From a candidate division WOR-3 bacterium (lineage in GTDB: Bacteria > Hydrothermota > UBA3072): a stretch of 64,000 nt of DNA. The stretch is from contig JAGLZA010000102.1 in assembly GCA_023131835.1 (NCBI GenBank), positions 616 through 64,615 of the forward strand, given 5' to 3'. Every line of letters begins with the position of its first letter. Positions within the stretch are counted from its first letter, which is position 1. Shown here piece after piece: positions 6,798 to 60,060 of the stretch. The notes under the pieces were generated by a model, which worked only from the letters and a program-made list of their open reading frames with translations, ran no database searches and was not told the origin of the DNA. A program made the translations under genes and the position numbers.

Positions 6798-6798
6798 G

Positions 6799-21062: not shown

Positions 21063-21119
21063 TCTACTATGTTAAATAATAAATAATGTTTTTTTTGAGA
21101 TTGTCAAGGGGGATAGCAA

Positions 21120-34819: not shown

Positions 34820-34827
34820 TCCCCCTT

Positions 34828-36981: not shown

Positions 36982-36984
36982 TAT

Positions 36985-43014: not shown

Positions 43015-43535
43015 TGGAATATAATCCTCAGATACTTTTCAAATCTTCCACCTATTATTTCAGTGGCTTCTTCAATAGCGGTGGCTCTGACGTCAATCCA
43101 GTGAATCAGCAATCTATCCTCCTGAATATCAAGAGTAAACGTTCCCGGTGTCAGGGTTATGGAATTAGCAAGGATTATTTTTGCCAGATCTGATTTAAGC
43201 CGGGTCTTTATAATCACCACACCGGGATTTATGGGTAAAGACGGACGAATGATCCGTGAAGCAACATCCAGATTAGCCCTTATTATCTCCCAGAAGAGAA
43301 TGAATATATAAAGGATAAAAAATCCGAATCTTTTAGGTGTTACAGGGGGGAAACCGAGTCGAATATAAAATTCATGAGTGGTGATAGCGATTATAAAAGA
43401 TATAACAATTCCAACCCAGAATTCCTGGTAATAGAAGGTCGATGTAAGGAGAAGCCAGAGTATAAAAAGAGAGAAAAATAGCCACAAAAAACCTTTTATT
43501 CTATCTTTTCCAGAATAATTATTATTCTTATACAT
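43011..43535 (-). CDS. mrpE: Na+/H+ antiporter subunit E (MrpE/MnhE)-like
   Basis: 174 aa; ...ANSITLTPGTFTLDI... matches the MnhE motif. Confidence 0.6.
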   Translation of the reverse strand: MYKNNNYSGKDRIKGFLWLFFSLFILWLLLTSTFYYQEFWVGIVISFIIAITTHEFYIRLGFPPVTPKRFGFFILYIFILFWEIIRANLDVASRIIRPSLPINPGVVIIKTRLKSDLAKIILANSITLTPGTFTLDIQEDRLLIHWIDVRATAIEEATEIIGGRFEKYLRIIFQ

Positions 43536-45196: not shown

Positions 45197-45210
45197 CTTA
45201 TCCTCCTGAA

Positions 45211-45999: not shown

Positions 46000-46900
46000 T
46001 GTTCCTCCCAATAAGATTTTTCTCCTTTAACAATGGCTCTGGATTCACATAATTCAGGTCAAAACCATAATAATCTTCATTTAATCCAAAACCAATCGCC
46101 ATAAGCTGGGTAAAATAAAACACTGGAATCCTGGTAAAATCAGAATGTTTCTCCTTAATTTCCTTCTGTCTGGAATCAAGATTAAAAGCACAGAGAGGGC
46201 AACTTAACGAAATAGCCTCTGCTCCTGCGTTTTGAGCGTGAGTCAGGATGTCATAGGCAAGATTGGAAACGACCTGTTTATCCCGGATTGTCTGATAACT
46301 ACCGCAACAAACTTTCTTATAAGGATTATCGATAACCTCTGCACCCAAAGCGAAAATCAATTCTTCCTGAATTACAGGTTCCTCAGGGTCGTCAATTCCA
46401 ACTTCCTTAGGTCTTAAAAGCATACATCCATAGTATGGAGCTATTTTTAATCCTTTGAAAGGATTCGTTACATTCTCTTTTATTTTCTCAAAACCTATAT
46501 CCTTTATTAGTTCTAAAAAATGTATAACTTCCACATTACCTTTATAATCTTCTTCCAGATACATAAAGTCATTTATCTTTTTAAGATCATCAGGTTTTTC
46601 TTTTACTCGAATATTCGCTCTCTTTAACGTGTTATAACACATTGAACATAAGGTAACGAGCCTGTGGTCGTTTTCCACCAGTCCATTTTTATTCATCTCC
46701 TGCACCCTTATCAGATTTCTGATTGGGGCTACATGATGAATCAAATCATCATCGGTAAGCGAAAAAACGGTTCCACAGCAGTTCCATCTGGAAAGTTCAA
46801 TCAACTCTATACCTAACTTTTCGGCAACAGCGAGGGCAGAGGTTTCAAAATTTCTTGCCTTTGTTTTAAGAGTGCATCCGGGATAATATGAAACCTTCAT
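45989..46900 (-). CDS. hdrB: Heterodisulfide reductase subunit B-like (two CCG domains)
   Basis: MKVSYYPGCTLK...WNCCG is the N-terminal CCG motif, with a second CCG domain (...KKVCCGS...). Confidence 0.75.
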   Translation of the reverse strand: MKVSYYPGCTLKTKARNFETSALAVAEKLGIELIELSRWNCCGTVFSLTDDDLIHHVAPIRNLIRVQEMNKNGLVENDHRLVTLCSMCYNTLKRANIRVKEKPDDLKKINDFMYLEEDYKGNVEVIHFLELIKDIGFEKIKENVTNPFKGLKIAPYYGCMLLRPKEVGIDDPEEPVIQEELIFALGAEVIDNPYKKVCCGSYQTIRDKQVVSNLAYDILTHAQNAGAEAISLSCPLCAFNLDSRQKEIKEKHSDFTRIPVFYFTQLMAIGFGLNEDYYGFDLNYVNPEPLLKEKNLIGRNNAK

Positions 46901-46904
46901 TAAT

Positions 46905-47309
46905 CTATCCTGTAAATTTTCTCATACCGCTTATCAGAGCAATCTGAGGTAATCGCTTCATTTCATCCTTCGAGAGTTTCTTTACATCAATATGATCTAT
47001 AGCCTGACGGAGTTCCACCTGTCTTAGTGCCTCTGCTACCTTGGACAAATCCAATCCGCGGGGACATCTTACAGTGCAAGTAAAACAGGAGGCGCACAAC
47101 CACATGGCTTTTGACTCCATAACCTCAGATTCTCCAAGCTGTACCATTCTCATCAACTGGGAAGGTGTAATATCCATCTCGGATACCATGGGGCAACTTG
47201 CCGAACAGATTCCACATTGGTCACATCGAGTTATCACCTCACCTGATAATTCTTCAATCTTCTTCAGAAAATCCACATTTTTGTCAGATAGTTTAAGTTT
47301 CTTAATCAT
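46905..47309 (-). CDS. hdrC: Heterodisulfide reductase subunit C-like (2x[4Fe-4S])
   Basis: CDQCGICSASCP and CASCFTCTVRCP. Confidence 0.75.
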   Translation of the reverse strand: MIKKLKLSDKNVDFLKKIEELSGEVITRCDQCGICSASCPMVSEMDITPSQLMRMVQLGESEVMESKAMWLCASCFTCTVRCPRGLDLSKVAEALRQVELRQAIDHIDVKKLSKDEMKRLPQIALISGMRKFTG

Positions 47310-49719
47310 ACTCTTCTCCGAATAATCTTTTATTTACATTTTCAACCAATTTCTCTCGCTTTTCCGGGGATATAGCCCCTGCTTCCCTTGCGTAATTCAC
47401 CAATCCGTTCACATTATCAACGAAGCCCTTCAACATTATAGTAACAAATTGTACAAATCGTAACCTTTCCGGCTTTATGCCTTCTTCCTTCAAAATTTCC
47501 CGTACTTTTGTTATATTCTCTCTGATAACCTGACCACTATGAGGAAAAGGAGAAGTCCTATCTTCACATTCACCAATGAATATTCCATCGGCACCCAATT
47601 TGAAAGCAGCTAACATGAGTTTAGGTGTAATCCGGCTTCCACTGGGAACTCTTATAATAATGGAATCCGTGGTGTATGAAAGTTTTGCAGTTCCTACTGA
47701 ATCCGCAAGTCGGTAGGTGCAGGTATCATCAGCAACTACAAGTATTCTTGTTTCTCCTTCTTCTTTTCCCTCCAGGGCATTTTTAATCTCTTCCAGTAAT
47801 TGCTTATTCGTATACATATGCAAATCCAGAGCATCCCGTGGACAGGAAGCAACACAACTCCCACATCCTCTACATAATGCTTCGTTTACTTCGGCTACCT
47901 CTGCGGAAATTGAGATTGCATTTAGGGGACAGCTATCAATACAAAGTTCACATCCATCGCACTGTTCTTCATGGACAAACGCTACTATGGGCTCTATTGG
48001 GTACTCTCTCTGGTTCATCAATCTTACGGCTCTGGATGCAGCTGCAGATGCCTGGGCTACCGTATCAGGTATATCTTTAGGACCCTGGACGGTTCCAGCC
48101 AGAAATATACCCTCTCTATTAGTGTCAACAGGTTTGAACTTTGGATGAGCCTCTTTAAGAAATCCGTCTTCACTCTTTGCAAGCCTTAACATTTCTGCAA
48201 TTTTATCGGTACTCTTTGACAGACCCATACCCACTGACAATACAACGGTATCGAATTCAGCTTCTATTATCTGACGGGTAAGTGTATCTTCTGCTTTTAG
48301 TATTACCTTATTTGAACCTGAATCCTCCATTACCTCCGCAACTCTACCTCTTATGAATTTGACACCCATATTCTGAGCCCTCTTATAATACTCTTCAAAT
48401 CCTTTGCCAAAAGCGCGGAGGTCCGTATAGAAAACATAAATATCCCTTTCTGGCTTGGAATGTTTCAGCAGACTCGCAAGTTTTGTTGCATACATGCAGC
48501 ACACTCTTGAGCAGTACTCTCTTCCCACCTGCTCATCTCTTGAACCAACACATTGAATAAATCCAATTCTCTTTCCCGGATCTCTTATTGGATTCCCTTC
48601 TGCAGCTTTAACTATCATTCGTTCCATCTCCAGAGCAGTTATTACATTCTTAAACTTATCATATCCGTAGACCTTCTTTTCTGAAGGGTTGAAAATATCA
48701 TAGCCGGTTGCTACTATTATTGTATCAACCGTAAATTCTATTTCTTCAGGCTTGTCATTAAAATTTATTGCATCTTCTTTACATACTTCTATACAATTAC
48801 CACAAGAATTTATATCCCTCTGGAGATTGATACAGGCTTCCGGATCGATCAAATTCCTGTGTGGTACAGCAAAGCCAAACGGAGTATAAATTGCAGTGTG
48901 AGTTGTCAGTCCTTCCTCAAATTCATCAGGAATATCCACAGGACATACCTCTTCACAATCACCGCAAGCAACGCACTTATCCATATCTACATATCTTGGT
49001 TTTTTAGTAACTTTCACCTTAAAATTGCCAAGATAACCTTCAACATTCTCCACCTCAGAGTAGGTAAGTAAATTTATATTAGGGTTGGACTGGACATCAG
49101 CCATCTTCGGGCTAAGGATACAGGCAGAACAGTCTTCAGTTGGAAAGGTTCTTGAAAGTTGTGCCATGTGTCCTCCGATACTTGGCTCTTTTTCGACCAG
49201 GTAAATCTCAAAACCCGCATCTCCCAGATCAAGTGAAGCCTGAATCCCTGCAATACCACCCCCTATCACCAGAACTCTTTTCCCTATGGGCATGGTCTTT
49301 TTCTCCAGGGGCTCGGAGAATCTCACTTTTGCTATTGCTGCGTTAACCAGTTCTTTTGCTTTTTTGGTAGCAAGTTCCGGAGTATCAAAGTGAGGCCAGG
49401 CACATTGCTCGCGAATATTTGCCATCTGAACCACATAGGGTGACAAGCCTGCTGTCTCGAGTACCCTCATGAATGTTTCACCCTGGAATTGAGGGGAACA
49501 GGCTGCAACAACAACTTTGTCCAAATCGTGTTCCTCAATATCATCTATGATAAGTTGTTGACCAATATCTGAACACATATGAGTATGGTTTTTCGACAGT
49601 ATAACACCCGGCTGTTTCCCCGCAAATCCAACTACCTCTTCAACATCCACAACCTCGGATATATTCCCACCACAATGACAAACATATACCCCTATTCTTG
49701 CTCTACTATCTTTTTTCAT
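47302..49719 (-). CDS. hdrA: Heterodisulfide reductase subunit A-like FAD/FeS flavoprotein with C-terminal MvhD-like domain
   Basis: N-terminal IGVYVCHCGGNI, FAD site VLVIGGGIAGIQASLDL and multiple ferredoxin CxxCxxCxxxCP motifs. The C-terminal 150 aa resemble MvhD (...IRVPSGSRI...GADGIFIGEC...) with most Cys ligands replaced. Confidence 0.75.
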   Translation of the reverse strand: MKKDSRARIGVYVCHCGGNISEVVDVEEVVGFAGKQPGVILSKNHTHMCSDIGQQLIIDDIEEHDLDKVVVAACSPQFQGETFMRVLETAGLSPYVVQMANIREQCAWPHFDTPELATKKAKELVNAAIAKVRFSEPLEKKTMPIGKRVLVIGGGIAGIQASLDLGDAGFEIYLVEKEPSIGGHMAQLSRTFPTEDCSACILSPKMADVQSNPNINLLTYSEVENVEGYLGNFKVKVTKKPRYVDMDKCVACGDCEEVCPVDIPDEFEEGLTTHTAIYTPFGFAVPHRNLIDPEACINLQRDINSCGNCIEVCKEDAINFNDKPEEIEFTVDTIIVATGYDIFNPSEKKVYGYDKFKNVITALEMERMIVKAAEGNPIRDPGKRIGFIQCVGSRDEQVGREYCSRVCCMYATKLASLLKHSKPERDIYVFYTDLRAFGKGFEEYYKRAQNMGVKFIRGRVAEVMEDSGSNKVILKAEDTLTRQIIEAEFDTVVLSVGMGLSKSTDKIAEMLRLAKSEDGFLKEAHPKFKPVDTNREGIFLAGTVQGPKDIPDTVAQASAAASRAVRLMNQREYPIEPIVAFVHEEQCDGCELCIDSCPLNAISISAEVAEVNEALCRGCGSCVASCPRDALDLHMYTNKQLLEEIKNALEGKEEGETRILVVADDTCTYRLADSVGTAKLSYTTDSIIIRVPSGSRITPKLMLAAFKLGADGIFIGECEDRTSPFPHSGQVIRENITKVREILKEEGIKPERLRFVQFVTIMLKGFVDNVNGLVNYAREAGAISPEKREKLVENVNKRLFGEEYD

Positions 49720-50005: not shown

Positions 50006-50368
50006 CTATGCTGTAGATATTGCAGATGGACTGTTTGCCTTCTCCCAGAGTTTCTGGATCTTTATCCTCTCCCAAACTGCTCCTGTTGCTTTCAGAATAA
50101 TTTCTCTACCAGTTCGGACTATCTTTGCTGCAAAATCTATTATACGCCTTCTGAAAGTAGTTGCATAACCCTTTTCTTCTATAATAGTGACAACTCTTTC
50201 TACAACATCTTTCTTAAATACCTCATAAAGAAAAGATGCTATAAGCATTGTATAATAAAAACCAGCATTACACTCAAATCGGGAGTTTGTCAAAAATTGT
50301 GTCTGAGTGAAAGGAAACTTGTATAAAAGGTAACGGTTATTATCCCAGAAGAGTGCAAGCTGGATCAA
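50006..50368 (-). pseudogene. C-terminal fragment of an IS4/IS1380-family transposase (remnant)
   Basis: ...RRRIIDFAAKIVRTGREIILKATGAVWERI... resembles the conserved C-terminal tail of IS1380/IS4 transposases. No DDE core is present, and it sits in an 1.1-kb non-coding gap between the two Hdr clusters. Confidence 0.4.
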
Positions 50369-50619
50369 TGGGATTGGATGTGGAAATTCCTCGGGATAGA
50401 AAAGACGAATTTCGCTCTCTTCTTTTACACGGAAGAAAATGGGAAAGGAGTGATGAAGGATACAAGAGACTACTTTTATCTCTTGTGGAAAGCGGATATT
50501 CTAAAAAAAGAGTAAGGGAGGTTCTAAGAAAATTAGGTCTTTCCTACAACAAGGAGAAGATGGAGAGGATAAAAGAGGAATTTCTCCGTGAAGTAAAGGA
50601 ATCAAACAAAGAGAGATAG
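50353..50619 (+). other. Small ORF (88 aa) of unknown function, possibly another IS-related fragment
   Basis: Basic, Lys/Arg/Glu-rich; overlaps the transposase remnant on the opposite strand. Confidence 0.2.
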
Positions 50620-50819
50620 AGAGTGAGTAGTTCGCCATCTTCATAGACGCAGAGGAATCAGTCTGCGTGCAACGCACTCCCAGGCGCAGAGAAGATGTAG
50701 GGAACGCATATATGTGTTCCTTTAATCCTTTGGATCCTTTAGAAAGCAAGAAAACGGAGGGGTGCAAACGCTATACGCCCCTACAATTATTTATCGCGGA
50801 CGCAAGGTCCTGAGTGACT

Positions 50820-52481
50820 TCAGCGCAGGGTTCCCAAATATTGCGTGGTGAGTTGTTTCTCCTTTGTCTCCTTCCTCGTATAATCCGGCAGGACCATAGG
50901 AGCTACTTTATCCTCCGCAATATCTATCTCCCTTAGTTCTTTTACATATTTTTTAACATGCTTAAGGGAGAGTTTACCAGGAGTTACTCCCTTAATATAC
51001 TCAGTCGCTGCCCTTCCGGCTCTCTGTCCGAAGACTAAAACACCAAGTAATGAATTACCCATAAGACGGTTTCTACCGTGAACTCCCCCGCTAACTTCTC
51101 CTGCTACATAGAGACCAGGAACCGTTGTAGAACAATCATCGGATATCTCCAAACCACCGTTCTGATAATGCAGAGTAGGATAAACAAGAATAGGAGTCTC
51201 TGTTATATTGATGCCGAATCGCATATTCTGTCTGAACATTGCAGGGAAACCCTTCTCTATTGCTCCCTTTCCCGCTTTCATCTCTATAAGAGGAGTATCC
51301 AGCCAGACCCCTTTCATTCCGGTGGGAGTCTCTACACCCTTCCCGGTTGCACATTCCCGTATCAATGATGCAGCTTCTATATCCCTTGGTTCCAATGGAT
51401 AGACGAATTGTTCACCAATGACATTTACCGGCTCTGCGCCTGCTCCCCTTATCTTCTCTGTTACCAACTGCCCTACTATCTGCTCCGGATAGGCAGCACC
51501 CGTGGGATGATACTGGACGGTATCCATAAACACCAACTTAACCCCAGCCCTGTACCCCATTATTAACCCATCAGCCGTAGCTCCGTAATGATTCGTCGTT
51601 GGGAATCCCTGGATATGTAATCTTCCAAAACCACCAGTAGAAAATATTACTGAGGTTGCTCTTGCAACAAGATATTCCTCTGTCTCAAGGTTGAAAAGGA
51701 TTGCACCTGATACTTTGCCATCTTCATCAAGAAGCAACTCCACTGCAGGAGAAAACTCTAATATATTTATTGAATCCGGATGATTTTGCACCTCATCGCG
51801 GAGGCATTTCATTATCTCTCCACCGGTGTAATCCCTTGCTGAATGCATCCTCTTTCTCGATGTCCCCCCACCGTGGAGGGTAATCATCGTGCCATCTTTT
51901 TCCTTATCGAACATTACACCGAGATCTTCAAGCCATCCGATAACCCCTGGCGCATCCATTACCAGTGCTTTCACCAATTCAGGAATATTGCGAAAATGCC
52001 CCCCACCAATAACATCAAGGTAGTGAATGGCAGGCGAATCATTTTCCTTATCCGCTGCCTGAATACCACCCTGAGCCATCATTGTATTAGCATCTCCCAA
52101 TCTCAATTTTGTGACAATGGTAACACTGGCACCACTCTCTGCGGCAATGATTGCTGCAGACGCTCCTGCACCTCCACCTCCAATCACAAGAATATCTGTT
52201 TCCAGATCCGTTTTCGTAAGGTCAATCTTATCCGGATCGATTCTCGGATATGCCTCAAGGAGGTCAACAACCTCCTGGACCACGGATGTTCCTTTAGATG
52301 AACCAACCCTCAATTCTCTTGTATTACCTTCCTTATAATCGGGATGATATTTCTTTAACAGTGCATCGCCTTCCTCTAAACTCATTGCAGGATGGAGCTT
52401 TTCTACTCTGGACTTACGTGTCGCTTCTACCTTTTCAATAGACTGCCACATCTCATTTGTATACCCGCCCTTCAAATCCAT
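50820..52481 (-). CDS. Sdh/Frd-family FAD flavoprotein (paralog 2) with conserved N-terminal extension
   Basis: GAAGGAGG SD; ILVIGGGGAGASAA; TMMAQGG; VQYHPTGAAYP. The N-terminal region shares HPDY and LLEAYP blocks with paralog 1. Confidence 0.7.
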   Translation of the reverse strand: MDLKGGYTNEMWQSIEKVEATRKSRVEKLHPAMSLEEGDALLKKYHPDYKEGNTRELRVGSSKGTSVVQEVVDLLEAYPRIDPDKIDLTKTDLETDILVIGGGGAGASAAIIAAESGASVTIVTKLRLGDANTMMAQGGIQAADKENDSPAIHYLDVIGGGHFRNIPELVKALVMDAPGVIGWLEDLGVMFDKEKDGTMITLHGGGTSRKRMHSARDYTGGEIMKCLRDEVQNHPDSINILEFSPAVELLLDEDGKVSGAILFNLETEEYLVARATSVIFSTGGFGRLHIQGFPTTNHYGATADGLIMGYRAGVKLVFMDTVQYHPTGAAYPEQIVGQLVTEKIRGAGAEPVNVIGEQFVYPLEPRDIEAASLIRECATGKGVETPTGMKGVWLDTPLIEMKAGKGAIEKGFPAMFRQNMRFGINITETPILVYPTLHYQNGGLEISDDCSTTVPGLYVAGEVSGGVHGRNRLMGNSLLGVLVFGQRAGRAATEYIKGVTPGKLSLKHVKKYVKELREIDIAEDKVAPMVLPDYTRKETKEKQLTTQYLGTLR

Positions 52482-52482
52482 C

Positions 52483-53160
52483 CTAAGCCTCCTTCTCTCT
52501 CTTTTTGTATCTCTTTTTCAACTCTTCTTCAGATAGAGACATCAATTCCTCGACCTCTTTTTTCCACATTCCCTTATTCAGTTCTTCTATTCGTTTTTCT
52601 GTATGCAAAGACCTCGGAGCCAAATATTTACCATACAATCGCCTTACAAGGATTGCAACATTATACTGAACTATCTCTGCAGGACATCTCATAGCACAGA
52701 GTCCACACATTATACAGTCAAATGAGATATCTGCTGCCCTTTCTATATCCTCTCTAATGATCGCCTGAACATAATCCATTACATTTATATCCTGAGGACA
52801 GGCCTTGGTGCAGGTATTACAACTCACGCATTTAAATGTCTCGGGATATAACCGTTGAAATACTCCAACTGTAGGCGAGAGTTGATCGATGTCGTAGCGA
52901 GCCCTCTGAGCAGGTACAAATGGCAGTTGAGCGAGAAACATACCATCTTCCACCTTGGTCTGACAGGCAAGATCTGCTCTGAGTTTATAATCGTCTTCTA
53001 GGCGGTATACGGTAGCACAGGCTCCACAGAATCCTTCCCTGCACCCTGCTCCCCGCTTCACCTGGTAACCTGCATATTCCATCGCTGTCAGGATGGTGAG
53101 ATTGCTGGGAACACGGTATTCCTTCCCCATTATATATATTCTTACCATATTATCATCCAT
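52483..53160 (-). CDS. SdhB/FrdB-like iron-sulfur subunit (paralog 2)
   Basis: CREGFCGACA; CVSCNTCTKACP; CIMCGLCAMRCP. Confidence 0.7.
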   Translation of the reverse strand: MDDNMVRIYIMGKEYRVPSNLTILTAMEYAGYQVKRGAGCREGFCGACATVYRLEDDYKLRADLACQTKVEDGMFLAQLPFVPAQRARYDIDQLSPTVGVFQRLYPETFKCVSCNTCTKACPQDINVMDYVQAIIREDIERAADISFDCIMCGLCAMRCPAEIVQYNVAILVRRLYGKYLAPRSLHTEKRIEELNKGMWKKEVEELMSLSEEELKKRYKKREKEA

Positions 53161-53602
53161 TGTTAAGAACCTCCTTTTGAGTCAAAACCTCCTCCGTTGA
53201 AAAGTTTAGAGGACCTAAAGCCCTTATCTCCTCAATAAATTCATCAACAATAACTGCATAACGTTTCCCCTCACTCGCAGAGATCCACTCCAATCTTAAT
53301 CTTTCAGGTTCAATTCCAAGATCCGCAAGTAAACGTTGCAATATCATAATCCTCTTCCGGGTCTTATAGTTTCCATTTATATAATGACAATCACCTGGAT
53401 GACAACCTCCAACAAAAACACCATCAGCCCCCTCCCTGAAACTCTCCAATATTTGCTCCATATTCAACCGAGAGGAACACATAAGTCGTATATTGGTTGT
53501 ATCGGGTTTATGCTTTATTCTTGAGGTTCCGGCAAGGTCCGCACCTGCATAGGTACACCATTTACACACAAAACTCACTATCTTTGGTTCAAATTCACTC
53601 AT
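53153..53602 (-). CDS. mvhD: Methyl-viologen-reducing hydrogenase delta subunit
   Basis: 149 aa; FVCKWCTYAGADLAG...IRLMCSSRL...GADGVFVGGCHPGDCHY with the Cys ligands retained. Confidence 0.8.
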   Translation of the reverse strand: MSEFEPKIVSFVCKWCTYAGADLAGTSRIKHKPDTTNIRLMCSSRLNMEQILESFREGADGVFVGGCHPGDCHYINGNYKTRKRIMILQRLLADLGIEPERLRLEWISASEGKRYAVIVDEFIEEIRALGPLNFSTEEVLTQKEVLNNG

Positions 53603-55567
53603 TTATACATCCTTTCCTTTTACTAAAACTGCCTTTGCCATAGATGCTATCTGGAGATCGGTCAGATTTCTCTGCTCTGTAGCCCCTGATGGACAGGCAA
53701 CAACACACGAACCGCAGGCTTGACAGAGTGCCTCATTGACCCTGACAATCCCATCTACCTCATCCATCTCTCTTGCCTGGTAGGGACAAACAGAAATACA
53801 TATTCCACAACCACTGCATAGATCTTCATCCACTGTAGCAATAATTGGTTCCAATTGTAGATAATCCCCGGAAAAGATACTGACAACCTTGGATGCTGCA
53901 CCGGATGCCTGACTCACCACATCCGGTATATCCTTAGGAGCCTGAGCACACCCTGCGAGATAGAATCCTGCGGTCGTGCTCTCAAGTGGTCTCAGTTTTG
54001 GATGCGTCTCCTTGAGAAAGCCGTGCTCACCCACCTGAATCTTCAAGGTGTTTGCAAGTTCCTCACTCCCGGGGGTGGGAATTATAGCCATAGAAAGAAC
54101 TACAAGATCCGCTTCTATTTCCACCGGTTTATTCGCGATGGTATCTACTCCTACTATTCTTACCTTCCCATTATCTCTATAAAGTTTGGATACCTTACCG
54201 CGAATATAAATAACACCATCTTCCCTCTGAGCTCTCTCTACGAATTCCTCATAACCCTTACCCCCGGATCTTATATCTATATAGAATATATAAGGCTGTC
54301 CATCATAAATATGATGCTTGTAGAGCATCGCCTGTTTGGTTGTATACATACAACATATTTTTGAACAATATGGCTTATGCTTTTCTGGATCTCGCGAGCC
54401 CGCACACTGGATAAATACTATATCCTTCACAACTTTCCCGTCACTCGGTCTTTTTATCTCGCCCCCTGTTGGTCCGGATGAAGAAAGGAGACGTTCAAAT
54501 GCCAACCCATCTATCACATCCTCAACCTCACCCCCACCATACTCCTTTAGATTAAGTATGGGATAGAGTTCATACCCTGTAGCCACCACAATAGCACCAA
54601 CCTCTTCCTTCCTGTAATTGGGTTCGCTTGAGAAATTGACAGCATCAACATCACACACACTTTCACAGAGTCCGCAAGCCCCTGTCTTGAACTTCAGACA
54701 GTTCTCCATATCTATTACAGGTTTATTGGGAACCGCCTGAGGAAAGGGAGTATAGATTAGAGCTCTCTCCCCCATATTTCGTTCAAACTCTGAGGGAACA
54801 GATATAGGACAAATTTCAGAACACTCTCCACAGCCTGTGCACTTCTCCCAATCTACTCCCTTTGGTTTTTCTTCTATTGTTACAGTGAAATTACCTATAT
54901 AACCCTCTACCTCCTTAACCTCAGCGTATGTACAGAGTTCAATATTTGGATGGGATGCTACTTCAACCATCTTTGGTGTAAGGATACACTGGGAACAATC
55001 CAGTGTAGGGAAGGTCTCAGATAATTGAGCCATATGTCCTCCAATGGAAGACTCTTTTTCCACAAGAAGGACAGGATAACCAGCATCAGCTATATCAAGC
55101 GCTGCCTGGATCCCGGCTATTCCTCCACCTATAACCAGGGCTTTCCTGGTTACCTCTACCTTAATGGGGTCCAGATCTTCGTTCAAACGGACCTTTTCTA
55201 TTATGGATCTGACGATACGGTTTGCTTTTTCGGTTGCTTTTTCCTTATCAGTATGCACCCAGGAACACTGCTCCCTTATATTGGCTATTTCGCATTGATA
55301 GGGATTTAATCCTGCTTTCTTTGTAACTCCCCTGAAGGTTATTTCATGGAGTGTAGGTGAACACGCCGCGATTATCACACCATCAAGTTTATTCTTCTTT
55401 ATTTCATTTATGAGAAGTTCCTGTCCGGGGTGGGAACACATATATTTATAATTCGTGCTGTATACAACTCCAGGATAACCCTCCAAACTCTTTGTCAATT
55501 TTTCAACATCAACAGTCTTTGCTATATTGGTGCCACAATGGCAGATAAACACTCCCATTCGTTTCAT
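53603..55567 (-). CDS. hdrA: Heterodisulfide reductase subunit A-like (paralog 2, no fused MvhD)
   Basis: AAGGAGG SD; MGVFICHCGTNI; ALVIGGGIAGIQAALDI; ferredoxin motifs CTGCGECSEICP and CSGCGICISVCP. Confidence 0.8.
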   Translation of the reverse strand: MKRMGVFICHCGTNIAKTVDVEKLTKSLEGYPGVVYSTNYKYMCSHPGQELLINEIKKNKLDGVIIAACSPTLHEITFRGVTKKAGLNPYQCEIANIREQCSWVHTDKEKATEKANRIVRSIIEKVRLNEDLDPIKVEVTRKALVIGGGIAGIQAALDIADAGYPVLLVEKESSIGGHMAQLSETFPTLDCSQCILTPKMVEVASHPNIELCTYAEVKEVEGYIGNFTVTIEEKPKGVDWEKCTGCGECSEICPISVPSEFERNMGERALIYTPFPQAVPNKPVIDMENCLKFKTGACGLCESVCDVDAVNFSSEPNYRKEEVGAIVVATGYELYPILNLKEYGGGEVEDVIDGLAFERLLSSSGPTGGEIKRPSDGKVVKDIVFIQCAGSRDPEKHKPYCSKICCMYTTKQAMLYKHHIYDGQPYIFYIDIRSGGKGYEEFVERAQREDGVIYIRGKVSKLYRDNGKVRIVGVDTIANKPVEIEADLVVLSMAIIPTPGSEELANTLKIQVGEHGFLKETHPKLRPLESTTAGFYLAGCAQAPKDIPDVVSQASGAASKVVSIFSGDYLQLEPIIATVDEDLCSGCGICISVCPYQAREMDEVDGIVRVNEALCQACGSCVVACPSGATEQRNLTDLQIASMAKAVLVKGKDV

Positions 55568-56439
55568 ACTATCCTCCTTAATAAATCCTCTGGTGAGCGA
55601 TAGTTTAACTCAAAATGACACACTTCGTGGTCAAGGTCAAAACTAACAGCCAAAGCCTGTGTGAAGTAGAGGATAGGAATATTCTCAAAGTCGGGATATT
55701 TTGCCAAAACATCCTCCTGTCTGTTATCAAGATTAAAGGCACAGAGTGGGCAGGAAACAAGAATGGCATCTGCCCCATTCCTTTTCGCATTACCAATGAT
55801 ATTACGGGTTCGTTCTACTACAAGTTCGACCTCTGAGACTGTCTGATATGCACCACAACATTCGTTCTTGAATGGAAAATAGATAGGTTCCGCTCCCATT
55901 GAAGTTATGAGATCCTCAAGGATAGATGGAGAATCGGGATTGTCAATTGCCGCCTCATCCGGCCGCAAGAGAAGACATCCATAATATGGTGCAAGTTTTA
56001 TACCATTAAGTGGTTTTTTTACTGCATTTTTAATCTTATCAAATCCAATTTCATCTCTTAAGATCTGAAGATAGTGAATCATCTCAACCTTGCCATTATA
56101 ATCATTTTCCTCTTTATACATAAAGGAATTGAGCTTTTCTCTTTCTTCCTCATCATTGTTTATGCGGATACTACTCCTCTTTATCGTATTATAACACATA
56201 GAACATAGGGTTGTAAATCTTTCTCCTCCTGCATCCTGAACCTTGAGTAGATTCCTTACAGATGCAATATGATGCATAAGGTCATCACTCGTCAGGGAAT
56301 AGACCGTTCCACAGCAATACCAGTCTACCATCTCTTTCAGTTTATATCCCAATTTTTCTGCACATGCCAGAGCCGAATCTTCAAATCCCTTGGCTGTATT
56401 CTTCAGGGTGCAACCGGGGTAGTAGAGTAATTCCTTCAT
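55564..56439 (-). CDS. hdrB: Heterodisulfide reductase subunit B-like (paralog 2)
   Basis: MKELLYYPGCTLK...WYCCG and a second CCG domain. Confidence 0.75.
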   Translation of the reverse strand: MKELLYYPGCTLKNTAKGFEDSALACAEKLGYKLKEMVDWYCCGTVYSLTSDDLMHHIASVRNLLKVQDAGGERFTTLCSMCYNTIKRSSIRINNDEEEREKLNSFMYKEENDYNGKVEMIHYLQILRDEIGFDKIKNAVKKPLNGIKLAPYYGCLLLRPDEAAIDNPDSPSILEDLITSMGAEPIYFPFKNECCGAYQTVSEVELVVERTRNIIGNAKRNGADAILVSCPLCAFNLDNRQEDVLAKYPDFENIPILYFTQALAVSFDLDHEVCHFELNYRSPEDLLRRIV

Positions 56440-56840
56440 GATGATAGTTTCCTCTGAGCACTGACCACAGCTATTGGCGGTAGGTCGGCCAACCTATCCG
56501 AATATTTCTTTATATCTATATAATCCTCATTCTCTCTCAATATCATCTGCCTGACTCCTTCCATTATGGCGCAGAGGTCTATTCCCCTCGGGCATCGGAT
56601 AAAGCACATATTACAGGAAGCACATATCCATGGGGTATTGGATGTCTTGAGCGTTTCAATATCACCAATCTGAATCGCACGGATGATCTGATTTGGCAAC
56701 CTATCCATTGAGTCGACCGAGGGACAACCCGCAGAACACTTGCCACAATGATAACAGGCATTGATATCTTCACCCGATAACTCCTTAATCTTTTTGATGT
56801 ATTCTGATTCGATACCTTCCTTTGATATTAGAAATGCCAC
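56436..56840 (-). CDS. hdrC: Heterodisulfide reductase subunit C-like (paralog 2)
   Basis: CYHCGKCSAGCP and CASCNMCFIRCP. Confidence 0.75.
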   Translation of the reverse strand: MAFLISKEGIESEYIKKIKELSGEDINACYHCGKCSAGCPSVDSMDRLPNQIIRAIQIGDIETLKTSNTPWICASCNMCFIRCPRGIDLCAIMEGVRQMILRENEDYIDIKKYSDRLADLPPIAVVSAQRKLSS

Positions 56841-56841
56841 A

Positions 56842-58311
56842 TTACTCTCCTTTTTTGAAGTTTACGAGGGTATCTATAATTTTTCCTTCTTTATTCCGCA
56901 GATTTATTTGCAGAGGGACCTTCCCCAATTGATGTGAGGCACAAGCCATACAGGGGTCAAATGCTCTGAAGAACATTTCAACCATATTGAAAATCCCATC
57001 ATCATACTTTCCCTTGTGTATAAATGCGGATGCTGCCTGTCGAATAGCCATATTTATCACTCCGTTGTTATTGGTAGTAGCAACGATAAGATTAAGATCT
57101 TCGATTAAATCATTCTCACCAACGGTATAATCGTGTATCAGTGTCCCTCGGGCAGCCTCTACGATTCCAACCCCCCTTCCGGGATTTTCTGTTATCGGAT
57201 TCCTCAGGGTATTTCCTGTGATTCCTTCCTTTTTTACTAATTCCAGTGCACGTTCAGAAGCGTAAATAAGTTCAATAAGCCTTGCCCAGTGATAGGCAAG
57301 GGTCTGATTTATCGGTTTTCCATGGTAGAAATCTATTATTTCCTCATATTCTTTTTGTGCCAGAGGGGTGGCAATTCCCTCTGCTGCATTTATCCTTCCA
57401 AGAGGCCCCACCCTGTACAATCCTGATTTGCTTCCGTCTTTCAAACCCTGATAGCCAACATTCTTCAGGTAGGGAACCTTGACATAGCTCCAGGGAAGAA
57501 CCTTCTCAGAGATATATTCTCTATAATCTTCCTGCTCAAACTTTATAAACTCTGAACCATCTGGTGCTGTAACCCTGACCTTGCCCTTATAGAAGTTCAG
57601 TTTATTATCTTCATCTACAAGCCCCATATTATAGGTGGAGAGTGCAAGACGCTTTGAACTTATAAGTCTTTTATAGCCTTCATTGGATAGAGCAATATTC
57701 TTGAATAACTCGATAGTCCCTTTTGAGAAATCCAGACATGACAATGCCATTTTCTCTATCTCGTTTCTCTCTTCGTCATTTAATCCCTTACTGATTCCTC
57801 CCGGCATTCCACACACCGGATGAGTGGCTTTCCCTCCAAGTATCTCTGTTATCTTCTGTCCATAGGCTCGGTGTTTTATAACCTTATTTACTGTATCCAA
57901 ACCGACCTTTTCTAAAACACCAAGAATATTCCTCTTTTCCGCAGCAGCCCTTGGACCTACAATAAAATCAGGAGAGGCCAGAAAATAAAAATGTAGTATG
58001 TGGTCATAAATAATATAACCCATATATAAGAGCTCACGGAGATCCTCTGCAAGAGGAGTTGGTTTTACCCCAAATGCAGAATCCAGAGCTTTTGTGGAAG
58101 CCACATGATGGGCAACAGGACAAACTCCGCAGATGCGGCTGGTTAGCTGAGGCATCAATTCTGCTCTTCTTCCCCTACAGAAGGTCTCAAAACCCCTGAT
58201 CTCCGGGACCTGTAGATATGCCTCTTCTACATCCCCCTTATCATCAAGGAATATTTCAATCTTCCCATGCCCTTCAAGACGGGTTATTGGGTCAATTGTC
58301 AATCTCTCCAC
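56842..58311 (-). CDS. mvhA: [NiFe] hydrogenase large subunit, Mvh (F420-non-reducing) type
   Basis: N-terminal RICGVCPVAHH and C-terminal DPCMACASHQ NiFe-ligand motifs. Confidence 0.85.
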   Translation of the reverse strand: MERLTIDPITRLEGHGKIEIFLDDKGDVEEAYLQVPEIRGFETFCRGRRAELMPQLTSRICGVCPVAHHVASTKALDSAFGVKPTPLAEDLRELLYMGYIIYDHILHFYFLASPDFIVGPRAAAEKRNILGVLEKVGLDTVNKVIKHRAYGQKITEILGGKATHPVCGMPGGISKGLNDEERNEIEKMALSCLDFSKGTIELFKNIALSNEGYKRLISSKRLALSTYNMGLVDEDNKLNFYKGKVRVTAPDGSEFIKFEQEDYREYISEKVLPWSYVKVPYLKNVGYQGLKDGSKSGLYRVGPLGRINAAEGIATPLAQKEYEEIIDFYHGKPINQTLAYHWARLIELIYASERALELVKKEGITGNTLRNPITENPGRGVGIVEAARGTLIHDYTVGENDLIEDLNLIVATTNNNGVINMAIRQAASAFIHKGKYDDGIFNMVEMFFRAFDPCMACASHQLGKVPLQINLRNKEGKIIDTLVNFKKGE

Positions 58312-59270
58312 TTCTTACCTCCCACTATAGAACTTGCAAGATTATACATATAGAAAGTCCCGACAGGATCGTCTATCTTATCTACCAGCTCTTTTATCTT
58401 TTCAATGTCGTTATCTATTTCTTCTCCGCCAAGTATAGAACCTATTGCTGATATAAAGCGCGCTCCCTGATCAGTAACCTTAGAGGTCGGCCCCATACAG
58501 CCGGTGCAGGGGAAATTTGCATTGATACATCTGGTAGAACAACCACTCCTTGTAACCGGTCCCATGCAGAGAACTCCCTGGAGAAGAAAACAATCACCAT
58601 TATCCTCCTTCAATCGGTGGGGGCGAATAATATCAGGCAATATCTTTTCTTCCTTAGGATTTCTGTCGCAATCTTCACAGACAGATATATCTGGAGCAAG
58701 GTTTGCACCAAAGGGTATTTTCTTTCCGGCTGCCACCATATCTATAAAGCTGGCTATGAGTTCGGGTGGGGGAGGGCATCCCGGGACAAAAGCATCCACT
58801 GTAACCACCTGCTCTAATGTAGATACTCGTGGTTCCAATTCCGGAAGGGTAAGTTTTCTATCACCATATACCAACTCTGGCATTATCCCTTCAGGATTAT
58901 CGGTGGTTACAGTCCTTTTGAATGCATTCTCTAATACCTCTTCCCTCTTAGAGAGGTTGGCCAATCCAGGAATGCATCCATCAACCGCACAGGAACCAAA
59001 GGCGATCAGGAGTTTTGATTTCTCACGTAGAAGTTCTGCCATCTCCCTGTTTTCTTCAGATCTAATGGCTCCATTAAAGAGCGTGATATCGATGCTTCCA
59101 TCACCCATTGCCCTTACATCCTTATACTTGGTATCTATGGCTACGGGCCAGAGAACGATATTCGCCACCTCTACAAGTTCTAAAATCTTTTCATTGGTAT
59201 CCAGAACGGCAACCTCACATCCTCCGCAAGAAGCAGCCCAATAAAGTGCTATATTCAATTTTTTAGACAT
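58299..59270 (-). CDS. mvhG: [NiFe] hydrogenase small subunit, Mvh type
   Basis: ATG at 59270 with an AAGGGAGAAG SD; MSKKLNIALYWAASCGGCEVAVLD and further FeS Cys clusters. The ORF-track upstream TTG start is rejected. Confidence 0.8.
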   Translation of the reverse strand: MSKKLNIALYWAASCGGCEVAVLDTNEKILELVEVANIVLWPVAIDTKYKDVRAMGDGSIDITLFNGAIRSEENREMAELLREKSKLLIAFGSCAVDGCIPGLANLSKREEVLENAFKRTVTTDNPEGIMPELVYGDRKLTLPELEPRVSTLEQVVTVDAFVPGCPPPPELIASFIDMVAAGKKIPFGANLAPDISVCEDCDRNPKEEKILPDIIRPHRLKEDNGDCFLLQGVLCMGPVTRSGCSTRCINANFPCTGCMGPTSKVTDQGARFISAIGSILGGEEIDNDIEKIKELVDKIDDPVGTFYMYNLASSIVGGKKWRD

Positions 59271-59339
59271 AACTTCTCCCTTTATTTTTCCCTTTAACAC
59301 TGAATAGTGTCCTTGTCTCAATCATTGCCTCAATATAGT

Positions 59340-60060
59340 AGAAGCAATCGTAATGTCAAGATTATTTCTCACTAAATCCCCCTTTTTTTAACCGCAGATA
59401 AACGCAAAGGACACAGAGGAAAAGTAGTTAAATAGTTGAATGGTTGAATAGTTAAATTGGAACTCCCATCACTACCCACCTTTTTTAACCGCGGATGAAC
59501 GCAGATAAACGCAGATGAACACAGAAGAGAGTTTAATTAATTCTAATTTTCTAAACCCGAAATCCTAAACCCGAAATCCTAAACCCTAAATCCTAAAATA
59601 CTCTTGAACCCTTATCACATATCACATATAACCCTACGAACTCCACGAACCCTATGAACTCCACAAACTCAATAAACCCCATTTTTAGCCACGGTTTCTT
59701 CACGGTTTTTGTAGGAGCGACTTCCCTATCGCGACCTTCCTGAAGTAGGGGCAATTCATGAATTGCCTCTACAAGTCTCGCGCAAGGGGAAAACGCAAAA
59801 GTAGGGGCGTTCGATTGAACGCCCCTACCAAATTCCCTTTTTCTCTTTCATCCTCTGGAAACATAAAAAATAAAGGGAAGTGGTGGGACTCTGCGTCCTC
59901 TTTCGTTCTCTGCGGTTAAAAATGGGGGGTGATGGTGGGTTCTTCCTCTCGAATTACAAATTAAAGGGGAGCGGTTGGGTTCTTTAGTTCTCTGTGCCCT
60001 CTGTGGTTAAAAAATTGGGGAGGTAGGGAGAAAAAGTTCCAGGGTTGTAAATATCGCAGG
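59340..60060. repeat. Composite intergenic repeat (locus E) upstream of the mvh-hdr operon
   Basis: 59420-59560 is an inverted copy of 11395-11530. (CCTAAAYCCGAAAT)n C-rich heptads at 59548-59600. 59710-59830 is near-identical to 21330-21440. Two CTCTG[CT]GGTTAAAAA copies at 59900-60030. Confidence 0.85.

Follow-up and report, generated by a model that had tools for sequence, protein, structure and literature searches.

A conserved Mvh-Hdr operon with fumarate-reductase-like subunits in a WOR-3 bacterium: a candidate H2-dependent, ferredoxin-reducing fumarate reductase

The window analysed here, a 64,000-nucleotide stretch of DNA from a candidate division WOR-3 bacterium, encodes the six subunits of the MvhADG-HdrABC complex of hydrogenotrophic methanogens (5odc, 8rvu), but in a bacterial host in which CoM-S-S-CoB is not expected and with two fumarate-reductase-like subunits packed behind mvhD. 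This leads to the question of which acceptor the electrons from H2 would reach in such an organism. Eight open reading frames occupy positions 50820-59321 of the minus strand, all at the coordinates given in an earlier note on this DNA, and the family matches agree with its gene order mvhG-mvhA-hdrC-hdrB-hdrA-mvhD-FeS subunit-flavoprotein. The operon (module 1) and its flanking signals are:

59332..59359, minus strand: promoter-like site TTGACA-16-TATATT, 5' of the operon
58299..59321, minus strand: mvhG, [NiFe] hydrogenase small subunit, group 3c type (Oxidored_q6 E=2.9e-24; VhuG model 181 bits)
56842..58311, minus strand: mvhA, [NiFe] hydrogenase large subunit, VhuA/MvhA-like (407 bits)
56436..56840, minus strand: hdrC, 134 aa, two CxxCxxCxxxCP [4Fe-4S] motifs
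55564..56439, minus strand: hdrB, two CCG domains (CCG E=1.8e-17 in two stretches)
53603..55567, minus strand: hdrA, presumed electron-splitting flavoprotein (bifurcating type; HdrA2 model 799 bits)
53153..53602, minus strand: mvhD, [2Fe-2S] connector subunit (FlpD E=2.6e-49)
52483..53160, minus strand: FeS subunit, Fer2 plus 4Fe-4S dicluster
50820..52481, minus strand: flavoprotein, TfrA/FrdA-like, 553 aa (FAD_binding_2 E=8e-67)
50741..50782, minus strand: weak terminator-like hairpin AGGGG...CCCCT with a T-rich tail, 3' of the last gene

The genes are tightly packed, as had been noted, but the overlaps of 4-14 nt described for almost every junction were found at only four of the seven (13, 4, 4 and 8 nt), the other three being spaced by 0-1 nt. 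This packing, together with the 8-nt overlap of mvhD and the FeS gene, supports the predicted translational coupling of all eight genes into one unit. With the stop codon of mvhD overlapping the start codon of the FeS gene, the sdhAB-like pair is unlikely to be transcribed separately. The promoter-like site has 11 of 12 matches and is the best in the region, where such matches as a whole are at chance level (21, with 21.5 expected). The mvhG gene probably begins at the ATG at 59270, served by a GGGAG Shine-Dalgarno sequence and located just downstream of this site; gene callers give a product of 323-333 aa. A 13-bp terminator-like hairpin (59829-59800) ends the unit upstream of the operon. The hairpin at the 3' end was read by eye, is absent from the output of the terminator scan and is weak evidence. 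Inside the operon, no minus-strand terminator-like site was found save a weak 6-bp stem within hdrA.

The hydrogenase and Hdr subunits follow the methanogen pattern. Both Ni-Fe ligand motifs claimed for MvhA, RICGVC and DPCMAC, are present in the translation, and the bifurcating-flavoprotein architecture ascribed to HdrA is borne out by a full-length alignment with the Methanothermococcus structure 5odc_A (690 bits, residues 3-642 against 5-644) and a CxGSRD...CSxxCC motif. The MvhD connector, the two 4Fe-4S motifs of HdrC and the two CCG motifs of HdrB are likewise shared with the methanogen complex, from which the window proteins differ in the short HdrC and in NCBIfam scores that all lie under the equivalog cut-offs. 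HdrB scored 173 bits with the HdrB model and 150 bits with that of SdhE (MFR anchor), and ten of its ten CCG-motif cluster cysteines align with methanogen HdrB (8rvv_B). The proposal that the SdhAB-like pair takes the place of the disulfide-handling partner was thus not upheld, since HdrB is still present with both CCG motifs intact.

Nor is the pair a complete SdhA/SdhB. The flavoprotein has no match to Succ_DH_flav_C, that is, the C-terminal SdhA domain is missing, and it carries a conserved 95-aa N-terminal extension. Asn132 sits at the position of the covalent-FAD histidine, the FAD is non-covalent, and 75 of the 76 family members share this replacement. Efficient succinate oxidation by FrdA/SdhA enzymes depends on covalent FAD, and the family therefore fits a reductase better than a succinate dehydrogenase. 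Every fumarate-site residue is kept (invariant: H325-P-T327, T341-E342, R366, H438 and R472), and E376-C377 forms an extra near-invariant motif. The top PDB match in a fold search was E. coli FrdA (1kf6_A, E=1.8e-31); the structure model has a mean pLDDT of 82.6. The best NCBIfam match was TfrA, at 328 bits well below the cut-off of 718, followed by NadB models at 282 bits; because all family scores fall under the curated cut-offs, the flavoprotein belongs to a distinct clade. AprA (E=2e-5 only) and L-aspartate oxidase (NadB), the identities raised by the earlier note, were both rejected, and the protein was placed in the Frd/Sdh/Tfr group.

A substrate other than fumarate, either L-aspartate as for NadB or another unsaturated or amino dicarboxylate with Hdr as electron sink or source, nevertheless deserves consideration: the NadB score is nearly that of TfrA, NadB shares the non-covalent FAD and the same His/Arg set, and the distinct clade and the E376-C377 motif, which has no known role, would also accord with it. 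We consider it improbable. The position aligned to NadB Glu121, a residue which we take from the NadB mutagenesis literature to be needed for aspartate oxidation, is never Glu in the family (H, W, L, P, A or S). Furthermore, an FeS partner always accompanies the flavoprotein, whereas NadB has none, and in many genomes its neighbours include genes for fumarase, malic enzyme and succinyl-CoA synthetase.

The FeS subunit contains 2Fe-2S ligands (C40/C45/C48/C66) and two full CxxCxxCxxxCP motifs for [4Fe-4S] clusters (C111-C121 and C149-C159), and therefore no 3Fe-4S site. These cysteines are invariant, and both cluster motif types occur in at least 64 of 66 homologues. The subunit matches the N-terminal part of TfrB (E=1.8e-12) and dhsB (E=2.5e-9), and no CCG domain was found in it. 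Three proteins of the operon together match successive stretches of the methanogen TfrB model: the FeS protein (19-85), HdrC (121-222, the central part of the NCBIfam model) and HdrB (265-473). As TfrB is a natural fusion of their parts, it can be argued that the three proteins form one electron chain.

A second, paralogous module, absent from the earlier note, starts about 1 kb downstream of module 1, and its proteins share 46-59% identity with those of the first. The features in this part of the window are:

50006..50619, strand not given: IS256- and IS1380-family transposase fragments, between modules 1 and 2
43538..49719, minus strand: module 2, paralogous Hdr-Frd
47302-49719, minus strand: module 2 hdrA~mvhD fusion
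46905-47309, minus strand: module 2 hdrC
45989-46900, minus strand: module 2 hdrB
45211-46011, minus strand: module 2 FeS subunit
43538-45196, minus strand: module 2 flavoprotein
32957..43535, minus strand: Mrp/Mbx-like membrane complex, directly after module 2 (2-nt gap)

Transposase_mut was also called on sister contigs. The membrane complex comprises MnhE, MrpF, MnhG, MbhD, MbhE/MnhB, a NuoK-like and two antiporter-M subunits, followed by NuoH, NuoB, NuoC, a NuoD-like subunit without NiFe cysteines and a NuoI~GltD fusion. Each module in the window has only one hdrB-hdrC pair, which makes a shared complex the simplest reading.

The flavoprotein family was found in at least 596 species, distributed over more than 15 phyla of bacteria and several lineages of archaea. 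Gene neighbourhoods were surveyed at 80 species-level loci, with Hdr, MvhD and Mvh counted within 10 kb at the 48 loci with full flanks. In 75 of 77 loci the gene immediately upstream of the flavoprotein gene is that of the FeS subunit. The survey proposed in the earlier note was strongly positive, with Hdr or MvhD genes within 10 kb in 40 of the 48 loci (83%); Mvh occurs in 11, about a quarter. The gene order of the window operon recurs in L023, L024 and L027, and in L008 a single strand carries malic enzyme-fumA-fumB-hdrCBA-mvhDGA-FeS-flavoprotein. In the remaining eight loci (L011, L017, L034, L055, L060, L062, L072, L073) no Hdr gene lies within 10 kb of the pair, as would be expected if the linkage were genomic only, with the Frd-like pair drawing on ferredoxin or NAD(P)H through other proteins and Mvh-Hdr serving an unrelated acceptor. 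That explanation is very unlikely in view of the co-localisation across so many lineages, the overlapping mvhD and FeS-gene codons, and the interchange of electron-input modules (Mvh, Flx-like, giant HdrL-like, NuoF-like) around a constant Hdr-Frd core. Four enzymes recur as neighbours: 2-oxoacid:ferredoxin oxidoreductase at 18 loci, fumarase at 11, malic enzyme at 10 and succinyl-CoA synthetase at 8. At least one of them is present in 36 of the 80 loci. Because these genes recur nearby, fumarate is the likely substrate, as had been suggested.

With gene content, packing, intact cofactor and catalytic motifs and the conserved linkage to Hdr and fumarate-branch enzymes as direct observations, we think it somewhat probable that the operon is one functional unit, a cytoplasmic H2-dependent, ferredoxin-reducing (bifurcating) fumarate reductase on an Mvh-Hdr chassis. 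MvhA would oxidise H2 and pass electrons via MvhG and MvhD to the FAD of HdrA, where each pair would be split. One electron would go uphill to ferredoxin and the other downhill via HdrC/HdrB and the 2Fe-2S/2x[4Fe-4S] subunit to the non-covalent FAD of the TfrA-like flavoprotein, which would reduce fumarate to succinate. The overall reaction would be 2 H2 + fumarate + Fd(ox) -> succinate + Fd(red) + 2 H+. We infer that the subunits form a physical complex, that fumarate is the terminal high-potential acceptor of the bifurcation and that the wiring is direct, with no free thiol carrier in between. The potentials are +33 mV for fumarate/succinate and -414 mV for H2, so that the exergonic arm would be larger with fumarate than with CoM-S-S-CoB. 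Three observations were counted against the proposed reading: no fusion of the FeS subunit to Hdr or MvhD domains occurs among its best 120 homologues, no TCA-branch gene lies within the 64-kb window, and the SdhB-likeness of the FeS subunit is weak by sequence.

HdrB retains a full disulfide-reducing site that a pure electron relay would not need, a point against direct wiring. The operon could instead encode two enzymes linked by a thiol/disulfide carrier: Mvh-HdrABC would split electron pairs from H2 between ferredoxin and a bacterial disulfide at HdrB, and a split thiol:fumarate reductase (flavoprotein and FeS protein with an HdrBC-type CCG site) would re-oxidise the thiols and reduce fumarate. 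Mvh-Hdr and TfrAB cooperate in this way in methanogens, and TfrA is the best family match of the flavoprotein. Loci with hdrC-hdrB-FeS-flavoprotein but without hdrA inside 10 kb (L076, L085, L029, L020) and those with two hdrCB pairs (L010, L067) fit a stand-alone thiol:fumarate reductase beside a separate Hdr, and were counted against a single complex; in L001 a TusA gene adjoins the pair. Rubin-Blum et al. (PMC6315080, supplement) offer this scheme as the first of two options, and Williams et al. (PMC8542988) adopt it as their reading. We regard it as possible but doubtful here. With one hdrB and one hdrC per module and an FeS subunit devoid of CCG, the 'Tfr' must borrow the HdrBC of Hdr, which would make a free carrier superfluous; the window shows no evident candidate for a thiol carrier or for its biosynthesis, and CoM and CoB are not expected in WOR-3.

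The earlier note also considered the reverse direction, a confurcating succinate dehydrogenase that forms H2 from succinate and reduced ferredoxin, for example in syntrophic propionate or succinate oxidation. Enzymes of the Mvh-Hdr type are reversible in principle, carriers include Syntrophaceae, Syntrophobacterales and Cloacimonadota, and ferredoxin could supply the energy input that succinate oxidation to H2 needs. The family-wide loss of the covalent-FAD histidine speaks against it, as do the nearby OGOR-type enzymes and malic enzyme, which fit the reductive direction. Moreover, succinate (+33 mV) and ferredoxin (about -450 to -500 mV) average by calculation about -210 to -235 mV, well above H2/H+ even at 1 Pa H2 (about -266 mV), and confurcation is most improbable.

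The pairing of Mvh/Hdr with a Frd-like pair is genuine; hundreds of anaerobic species have it, and the literature already contains proposals of it. The earlier remark that no Mvh-Hdr-Frd assembly has been characterised remains true, but gene clusters of this or a related kind have been published (PMC8542988, PMC6315080, PMC11636981, bioRxiv 10.1101/2023.11.26.568696). In Ca. Celaenobacter (Cloacimonadota), an Mvh-Hdr-TFR-OGOR-fumarase-SCS cluster was read, from genomics alone and with a heterodisulfide intermediate, as an H2-driven reductive TCA step (Williams et al. 2021, PMC8542988). It likewise combines a group 3c hydrogenase, Hdr and a TFR-like pair, whereas the window operon belongs to another phylum and has no OGOR, fumarase or SCS genes nearby; Cloacimonadota loci of the survey (e.g. 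L007, L075) carry the same flavoprotein family. Tubeworm symbionts and Thioflavicoccus mobilis possess a frdBA-hdrCB-korDABC-hdrA-flxDCBA cluster (Rubin-Blum 2019, PMC6315080; Mitchell 2024, PMC11636981), and bifurcation to fumarate was explicitly proposed for Flx-Hdr-TfrAB-KorABCD clusters of these organisms and Bipolaricaulia (PMC6315080, PMC11636981, bioRxiv 10.1101/2023.11.26.568696). In Endoriftia the cluster genes are co-expressed, except for tfrAB with a different differential-expression pattern (PMC6315080, PMC11636981). There too an Hdr core stands beside a two-subunit soluble fumarate reductase, with bifurcation to it and to ferredoxin/OGOR hypothesised, but the donor is NADH via FlxABCD rather than H2 via MvhAG. 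The surveyed Flx-type loci share this layout.

Methanothermobacter TfrAB is a soluble, quinone-independent thiol:fumarate reductase (Heim et al. 1998, as cited in PMC6315080). It resembles the window proteins in its TfrA subunit and in electron transfer via FeS clusters linked to CCG domains, but TfrB is one 488-aa protein instead of the products of three genes (FeS protein, HdrC, HdrB), and the window flavoprotein lacks the C-terminal ~120 residues of TfrA and has the N-terminal extension. Hydrogenobacter thermophilus has a soluble, quinone-independent, irreversible five-subunit NADH-dependent fumarate reductase of the reductive TCA cycle (Miura 2008, described in PMC13147460). It also has electron-input subunits beyond A and B; its donor is NADH, its genes are dispersed, and neither HdrA nor a hydrogenase belongs to it. 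Its D and E subunits are reportedly HdrB/HdrC-like. In QmoABC-AprAB of sulfate reducers an HdrA-like module similarly feeds an SdhA-superfamily flavoprotein with a small FeS partner, but AprA is distant and acts on APS, in a system linked to the membrane and to quinones.

If the H2-dependent bifurcating reading is true, the operon would carry out the step from fumarate to succinate in a reductive TCA branch, or let fumarate serve as an electron sink, and would also provide reduced ferredoxin for 2-oxoacid synthases.

Module 1 consists of eight head-to-tail ORFs on the minus strand, from 59321 to 50820, in which mvhG, mvhA, hdrC, hdrB, hdrA and mvhD, all identified with Pfam and NCBIfam, lie contiguously on one strand ahead of an FeS gene and a flavoprotein gene. 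The components and the signals at the ends are as follows:

59829-59800: strong hairpin, closing the unit upstream of the operon
59359-59332: promoter-like site TTGACA-16-TATATT just 5' of the operon, the best scoring in the region
59270: ATG, probable start of mvhG, with a GGGAG Shine-Dalgarno sequence
mvhG: MvhG/VhuG-like small subunit, by Pfam and NCBIfam (VhuG 181 bits, cut-off 450)
mvhA: MvhA/VhuA-like large subunit of a group 3c [NiFe] hydrogenase (VhuA 407 bits, cut-off 800)
hdrC: HdrC, identified by Pfam and NCBIfam
hdrB: HdrB with two CCG domains (HdrB model 173, cut-off 345)
hdrA: HdrA (HdrA2 model 799, cut-off 1100)
mvhD: MvhD (FlpD), identified by Pfam and NCBIfam
52483-53160, minus strand: FeS subunit, 225 aa
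50820-52481, minus strand: flavoprotein, 553 aa, with a Pfam FAD_binding_2 domain
3' of the last operon gene: weak hairpin with a T-tract

According to the ORF coordinates, four of the seven junctions overlap (by 13, 4, 4 and 8 nt) and three are gapped (1, 0 and 1 nt). Because the junctions run from a 13-nt overlap to a 1-nt gap the operon is tightly packed, although the claim of the earlier note that almost every junction overlaps was overstated. A scan of the region for promoters and terminators gave an overall total at chance level, and the end signals are thus suggestive only. The host is a WOR-3 bacterium, the source given in the annotation of a 99%-identical protein, and the locus recurs on several metagenome contigs and in two WOR-3 MAGs. 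The operon is real, far beyond chance.

The operon shares with the methanogen MvhADG-HdrABC the same six subunits, the Ni-Fe motifs, the two CCG motifs and a full-length HdrA, whereas its VhuA, HdrB, HdrA2 and VhuG scores are all under the curated equivalog cut-offs. In the translation of mvhA the Ni-Fe ligand motifs RxCGxC and DPCxxC are kept as RICGVC and DPCMAC, as the earlier note had read them, and the bifurcating architecture it assigned to HdrA is borne out by an end-to-end match to the methanogen chain 5odc_A (690 bits, residues 3-642 against 5-644). HdrB has ten CCG cysteines, belonging to non-cubane clusters, all of which align with methanogen HdrB. The further proposal that an SdhAB-like pair had replaced the disulfide-handling partner has to be abandoned, since HdrB is kept with its whole disulfide site. 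This intact site fits a rival reading, in which a stand-alone thiol:fumarate reductase operates beside Hdr and is joined to it by a thiol carrier; we regard that arrangement as rather unlikely.

The flavoprotein scores far under the curated cut-offs of all family models. Its top match is methanogen TfrA (328 bits, yet under the equivalog cut-off of 718, and covering only model positions 5-426 of 546), followed by NadB (282 bits, cut-off 452) and then by SdhA/FrdA models. The closest solved chain by sequence is SdhA of Mycobacterium Sdh1. With an AlphaFold model (mean pLDDT 82.6, pTM 0.87) as query, the best fold matches were E. coli FrdA and further FrdA/SdhA chains, and the protein has the FAD-binding and capping domain fold with the HPT, Arg, His and Arg of the fumarate site. 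A 95-residue N-terminal extension is confidently modelled and occurs family-wide, including in the paralogue from a second module described below. In alignments of 14 and 54 relatives H325-P-T327, T341-E342, R366, H438 and R472 are invariant, and these are the dicarboxylate-binding and proton-transfer residues of fumarate reductases. A Glu-Cys pair in the capping-domain region, with E376 invariant and C377 at least 90% conserved, has no counterpart in the SdhA and NadB sequences of the alignment.

Two other identities were considered and rejected. Chains of AprA in the PDB matched only at E=2e-5, in the N-terminal FAD motif region, and no AprA model was among the top matches. NadB requires Glu121 for aspartate oxidation; the flavoprotein has His203 at the aligned position, which in relatives is H, W, L, P, A or S and never Glu. 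The missing Glu121 equivalent, the obligatory FeS partner and the neighbour genes all speak against NadB. The homology searches favour TfrA/FrdA/SdhA and place the flavoprotein outside the AprA and L-aspartate oxidase clades, in keeping with the fumarate-reductase-like assignment of the earlier note.

The fold and the fumarate-site residues are common to the flavoprotein and the SdhAB/FrdAB pair of complex II, but the operon lacks the covalent-FAD histidine, the C-terminal helical domain and the membrane anchors. The position of the histidine is occupied by Asn132, and 75 of the 76 relatives surveyed likewise have Asn there. Loss of the covalent FAD link leaves fumarate reduction intact and cripples succinate oxidation. 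Pfam gave no match to the helical domain Succ_DH_flav_C in the flavoprotein, where about 75 residues follow the FAD domain, and an ORF and domain search of the operon found no SdhC/D or FrdC/D anchor subunits. The residue-level features argue for a putative unidirectional fumarate reductase. The missing histidine and unfavourable thermodynamics both stand against reverse operation, and the succinate-linked confurcation that had been offered as a second option is therefore disfavoured.

The FeS subunit contains a plant-type 2Fe-2S motif and two CxxCxxCxxxCP motifs, with the ligand sets C40/45/48/66, C111-121 and C149-159 invariant. Having two 4-Cys motifs, it is therefore without a 3Fe-4S site. 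It reaches 36.9 against the dhsB model (cut-off 88) and E about 1.5e-3 against SdhB chains in the PDB, and its predicted model (pTM 0.50) has fold matches up to TM 0.25-0.30 only. A kinship to SdhB/TfrB appears possible and is weakly supported by sequence. A Pfam domain search detected no CCG domain in the subunit. The methanogen TfrB is a single subunit with FeS clusters and two CCG domains, whereas the window has three proteins, which cover the TfrB model piecewise (FeS subunit 19-85, HdrC 121-222, HdrB 265-473). Because the TfrB model spans all three, a natural fusion of the FeS, HdrC and HdrB elements exists. The small subunits of the Hydrogenobacter fumarate reductase may be HdrBC-like. 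Neither the best 120 of 7730 homologues nor 66 surveyed genes showed the FeS subunit fused to CCG, FlpD or FAD domains, which leaves the methanogen TfrB model as the one fusion precedent. The lack of fusions among those 120 counts against direct wiring and fits the thiol carrier.

A species-level scan with one genome per species recovered the flavoprotein family from at least 596 species. The best 80 loci, 56-65% identical to the query flavoprotein, were surveyed by labelling their ORFs by phmmer with the window proteins and clustering the remaining neighbours. The bacterial carriers among them belong to Cloacimonadota, WOR-3, Anaerolineae/Dehalococcoidia, Bacillota, Aminicenantes, Neomarinimicrobiota, Thermodesulfobacteriota and other delta-type lineages, Fibrobacterota, KSB1, BRC1, Spirochaetota, Fermentibacteraceae and Hydrothermota, the archaeal ones to Thermoplasmata, Theionarchaea, Methanofastidiosum and Thermococci. 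In 75 of 77 loci this gene-neighbourhood survey, which the earlier note had suggested, placed the FeS gene directly 5' of its flavoprotein partner. Where at least 9 kb of upstream sequence was available, Hdr or MvhD genes were present in 40 of 48 loci and Mvh in 11 of 48. Across the 80 loci the input module is Mvh in 15-16 and a set of Flx-like HydG/HydB-type proteins in 10-12; giant HdrL-like HdrA proteins of 1000-1600 aa also occur, and one locus (L004) has a NuoF-like/FeFe-type set. Three Neomarinimicrobiota loci (L023, L024 and L027) have a gene order identical to that of module 1. Outside the redox modules, enzymes of the TCA branch are recurrent neighbours:

2-oxoacid:ferredoxin oxidoreductase subunits: 18 loci
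class I fumarase: 11 loci
malic enzyme: 10 loci
succinyl-CoA synthetase: 8 loci
any of the four: 36 of 80 loci

One locus (L008) carries malic enzyme-fumA-fumB-hdrC-hdrB-hdrA-mvhD-mvhG-mvhA-FeS-flavoprotein on a single strand. Because fumarase and the preceding and following enzymes of the reductive branch adjoin the reductase genes, fumarate is indicated as the substrate, and this is the strongest evidence for it. The survey also yielded arrangements that speak against direct wiring and fit a thiol shuttle: four loci (L020, L029, L076 and L085) have only hdrC-hdrB-FeS-flavoprotein, with hdrA not within reach, and two (L010 and L067) have two hdrC-hdrB pairs beside one FeS-flavoprotein pair. 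In a 6.5-Mb genome (L001) a TusA-family sulfur-carrier gene (11748-11963) lies immediately 3' of the flavoprotein gene, with a C-terminal fumarase fragment upstream; the TusA gene may hint at a thiol partner that is a protein. In 30 of the 80 loci (e.g. L019:8153-9280), but not in the window, the gene of a conserved protein of roughly 376 aa separates mvhD from the FeS gene. At its C-terminus this protein carries a two-[4Fe-4S] motif, and Pfam and NCBIfam give generic 4Fe-4S dicluster matches only.

A direct, bifurcation-coupled, H2-driven reduction of fumarate is judged somewhat probable for module 1. On the simplest reading the operon would then encode a single H2:fumarate oxidoreductase, in which HdrA would split the electron pair, sending one electron to ferredoxin and the other via HdrC/HdrB and the FeS subunit to the flavoprotein. 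A shared complex is favoured over two enzymes because each module has one hdrB and one hdrC, because the FeS subunit is without a CCG domain of its own, and because TfrB fuses the FeS, HdrC and HdrB elements. The potential of H2 is -414 mV. The exergonic arm is ample, because against this value the fumarate/succinate couple lies at +33 mV (PMC5861303). Another substrate, reverse operation and mere co-location of the genes share the small probability that direct coupling and the thiol carrier leave.

The earlier note missed a paralogous module nearby, which lies one kilobase downstream of module 1, beyond transposase fragments:

50353-50619, plus strand: IS256-family transposase fragment, between modules 1 and 2
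50006-50368, minus strand: IS1380-family transposase fragment, between modules 1 and 2
49719-43538, minus strand: module 2, with an hdrA~mvhD fusion, hdrC, hdrB, an FeS gene and a flavoprotein gene
to 32957, minus strand, after a 2-nt gap: 13 genes of an Mrp/Mbx-like membrane complex, comprising MnhE, MrpF, MnhG, MbhD, MbhE, NuoK-like, two antiporter subunits, NuoH, NuoB, NuoC, a NuoD-like protein without Ni-Fe cysteines and a terminal NuoI~GltD fusion

The module-2 proteins are 46-59% identical to their module-1 counterparts. As module 2 joins the membrane complex, the Hdr-Frd core is used twice with different partner modules. The layout is repeated on two further contigs (L086 and L087), and since a NuoH gene is nearby in one of 80 related loci, also from WOR-3, the arrangement is rare. 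On sister contigs Transposase_mut fragments were likewise called between the modules. A tentative extension, which we hold to be doubtful, is that HdrA/B/C, the FeS subunit, the flavoprotein and MvhD form one hard-wired complex in which the terminal high-potential acceptor of flavin-based bifurcation is fumarate instead of a disulfide and the input modules are interchangeable. Module 2 on its Mrp/Mbx-like, NiFe-less NuoI~GltD module would then carry out a fumarate respiration that is linked to ferredoxin or NAD(P)H, translocates ions and needs no quinone. If true, such respiration would be previously undescribed, and the hard-wired core would identify the substrate of bacterial HdrABC in these lineages.

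Two sigma-54 activators of 1384 and 1385 aa with AAA_16 and TPR N-terminal regions, 69% identical and in opposite orientation, are encoded at 11820-15974 (plus strand) and 28226-32383 (minus strand). The latter, encoded directly 3' of the Mbx-like operon, might act as its regulator. A cobalamin riboswitch (20915-21079, minus strand, 103.8 bits) precedes both a small ORF and the gene of a TonB-dependent receptor of the BtuB-like type (18609-20351). Two adjoining tRNA-Ser genes with GCT and TGA anticodons occupy 1157-1333 (minus strand), and the housekeeping set near them at 2377-8331 (plus strand; polyprenyl synthetase, DXP synthase, LpxC, FabZ-like, LpxA-like and Thi4) fits a diderm bacterium.

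In MAGs of Ca. Celaenobacter, Williams et al. [quoted passage not shown] The order frdB-frdA-hdrC-hdrB-korDABC-hdrA-flxDCBA was reported from tubeworm symbionts and Thioflavicoccus mobilis by Rubin-Blum et al. 2019 (PMC6315080), who proposed two alternatives, a thiol shuttle and a novel complex whose bifurcation would feed OGOR and fumarate reductase directly. Endoriftia co-expresses most of the cluster, with a differing pattern for tfrAB (Mitchell et al. 2024, PMC11636981). The Hdr-fumarate reductase idea has been repeated for Bipolaricaulia and in a 2026 survey (PMC13147460), whereas a 2025 WOR-3 paper found Mvh-Hdr in 34 MAGs, assumed CoM-S-S-CoB and made no link to fumarate reductase. The window shares with the published 'tfrAB' clusters (Rubin-Blum 2019, Williams 2021) the FeS and flavoprotein genes adjoining hdrC/hdrB/hdrA and MvhD/FlxD. 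Co-location with reductive-TCA genes, seen in 36 of 80 related loci, is absent from it, as no OGOR, fumarase, SCS or ACL genes were found within the 64 kb.

Literature phrase searches retrieved no characterised 'bifurcating fumarate reductase' and no biochemical characterisation, in agreement with the earlier note, which knew of no characterised Mvh-Hdr-Frd assembly. Its idea of an H2-driven bifurcating fumarate reductase is reasonable and largely supported by the comparative evidence, but as a hypothesis it had already been published. The operon is a further member of a known, experimentally uncharacterised type of system. The present analysis adds how widely the linkage is spread among species, the arguments drawn from single residues, the TfrB fusion argument and the join of module 2 to the Mbx-like complex. 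Being compact (eight genes, 8.5 kb), module 1 is suited to heterologous expression.

What HdrABC reduces in bacteria and other non-methanogens is a long-standing question, to which this flavoprotein family offers a testable answer for several hundred species, namely fumarate, served via a two-subunit reductase of its own. Should the coupling be real, the conversion of fumarate to succinate and the reduction of ferredoxin for 2-oxoacid synthases would both be driven by H2 (or NADH). The reductive TCA branch would then cost less, and the coupling would explain how organisms without a quinone-linked fumarate reductase close the fumarate step.
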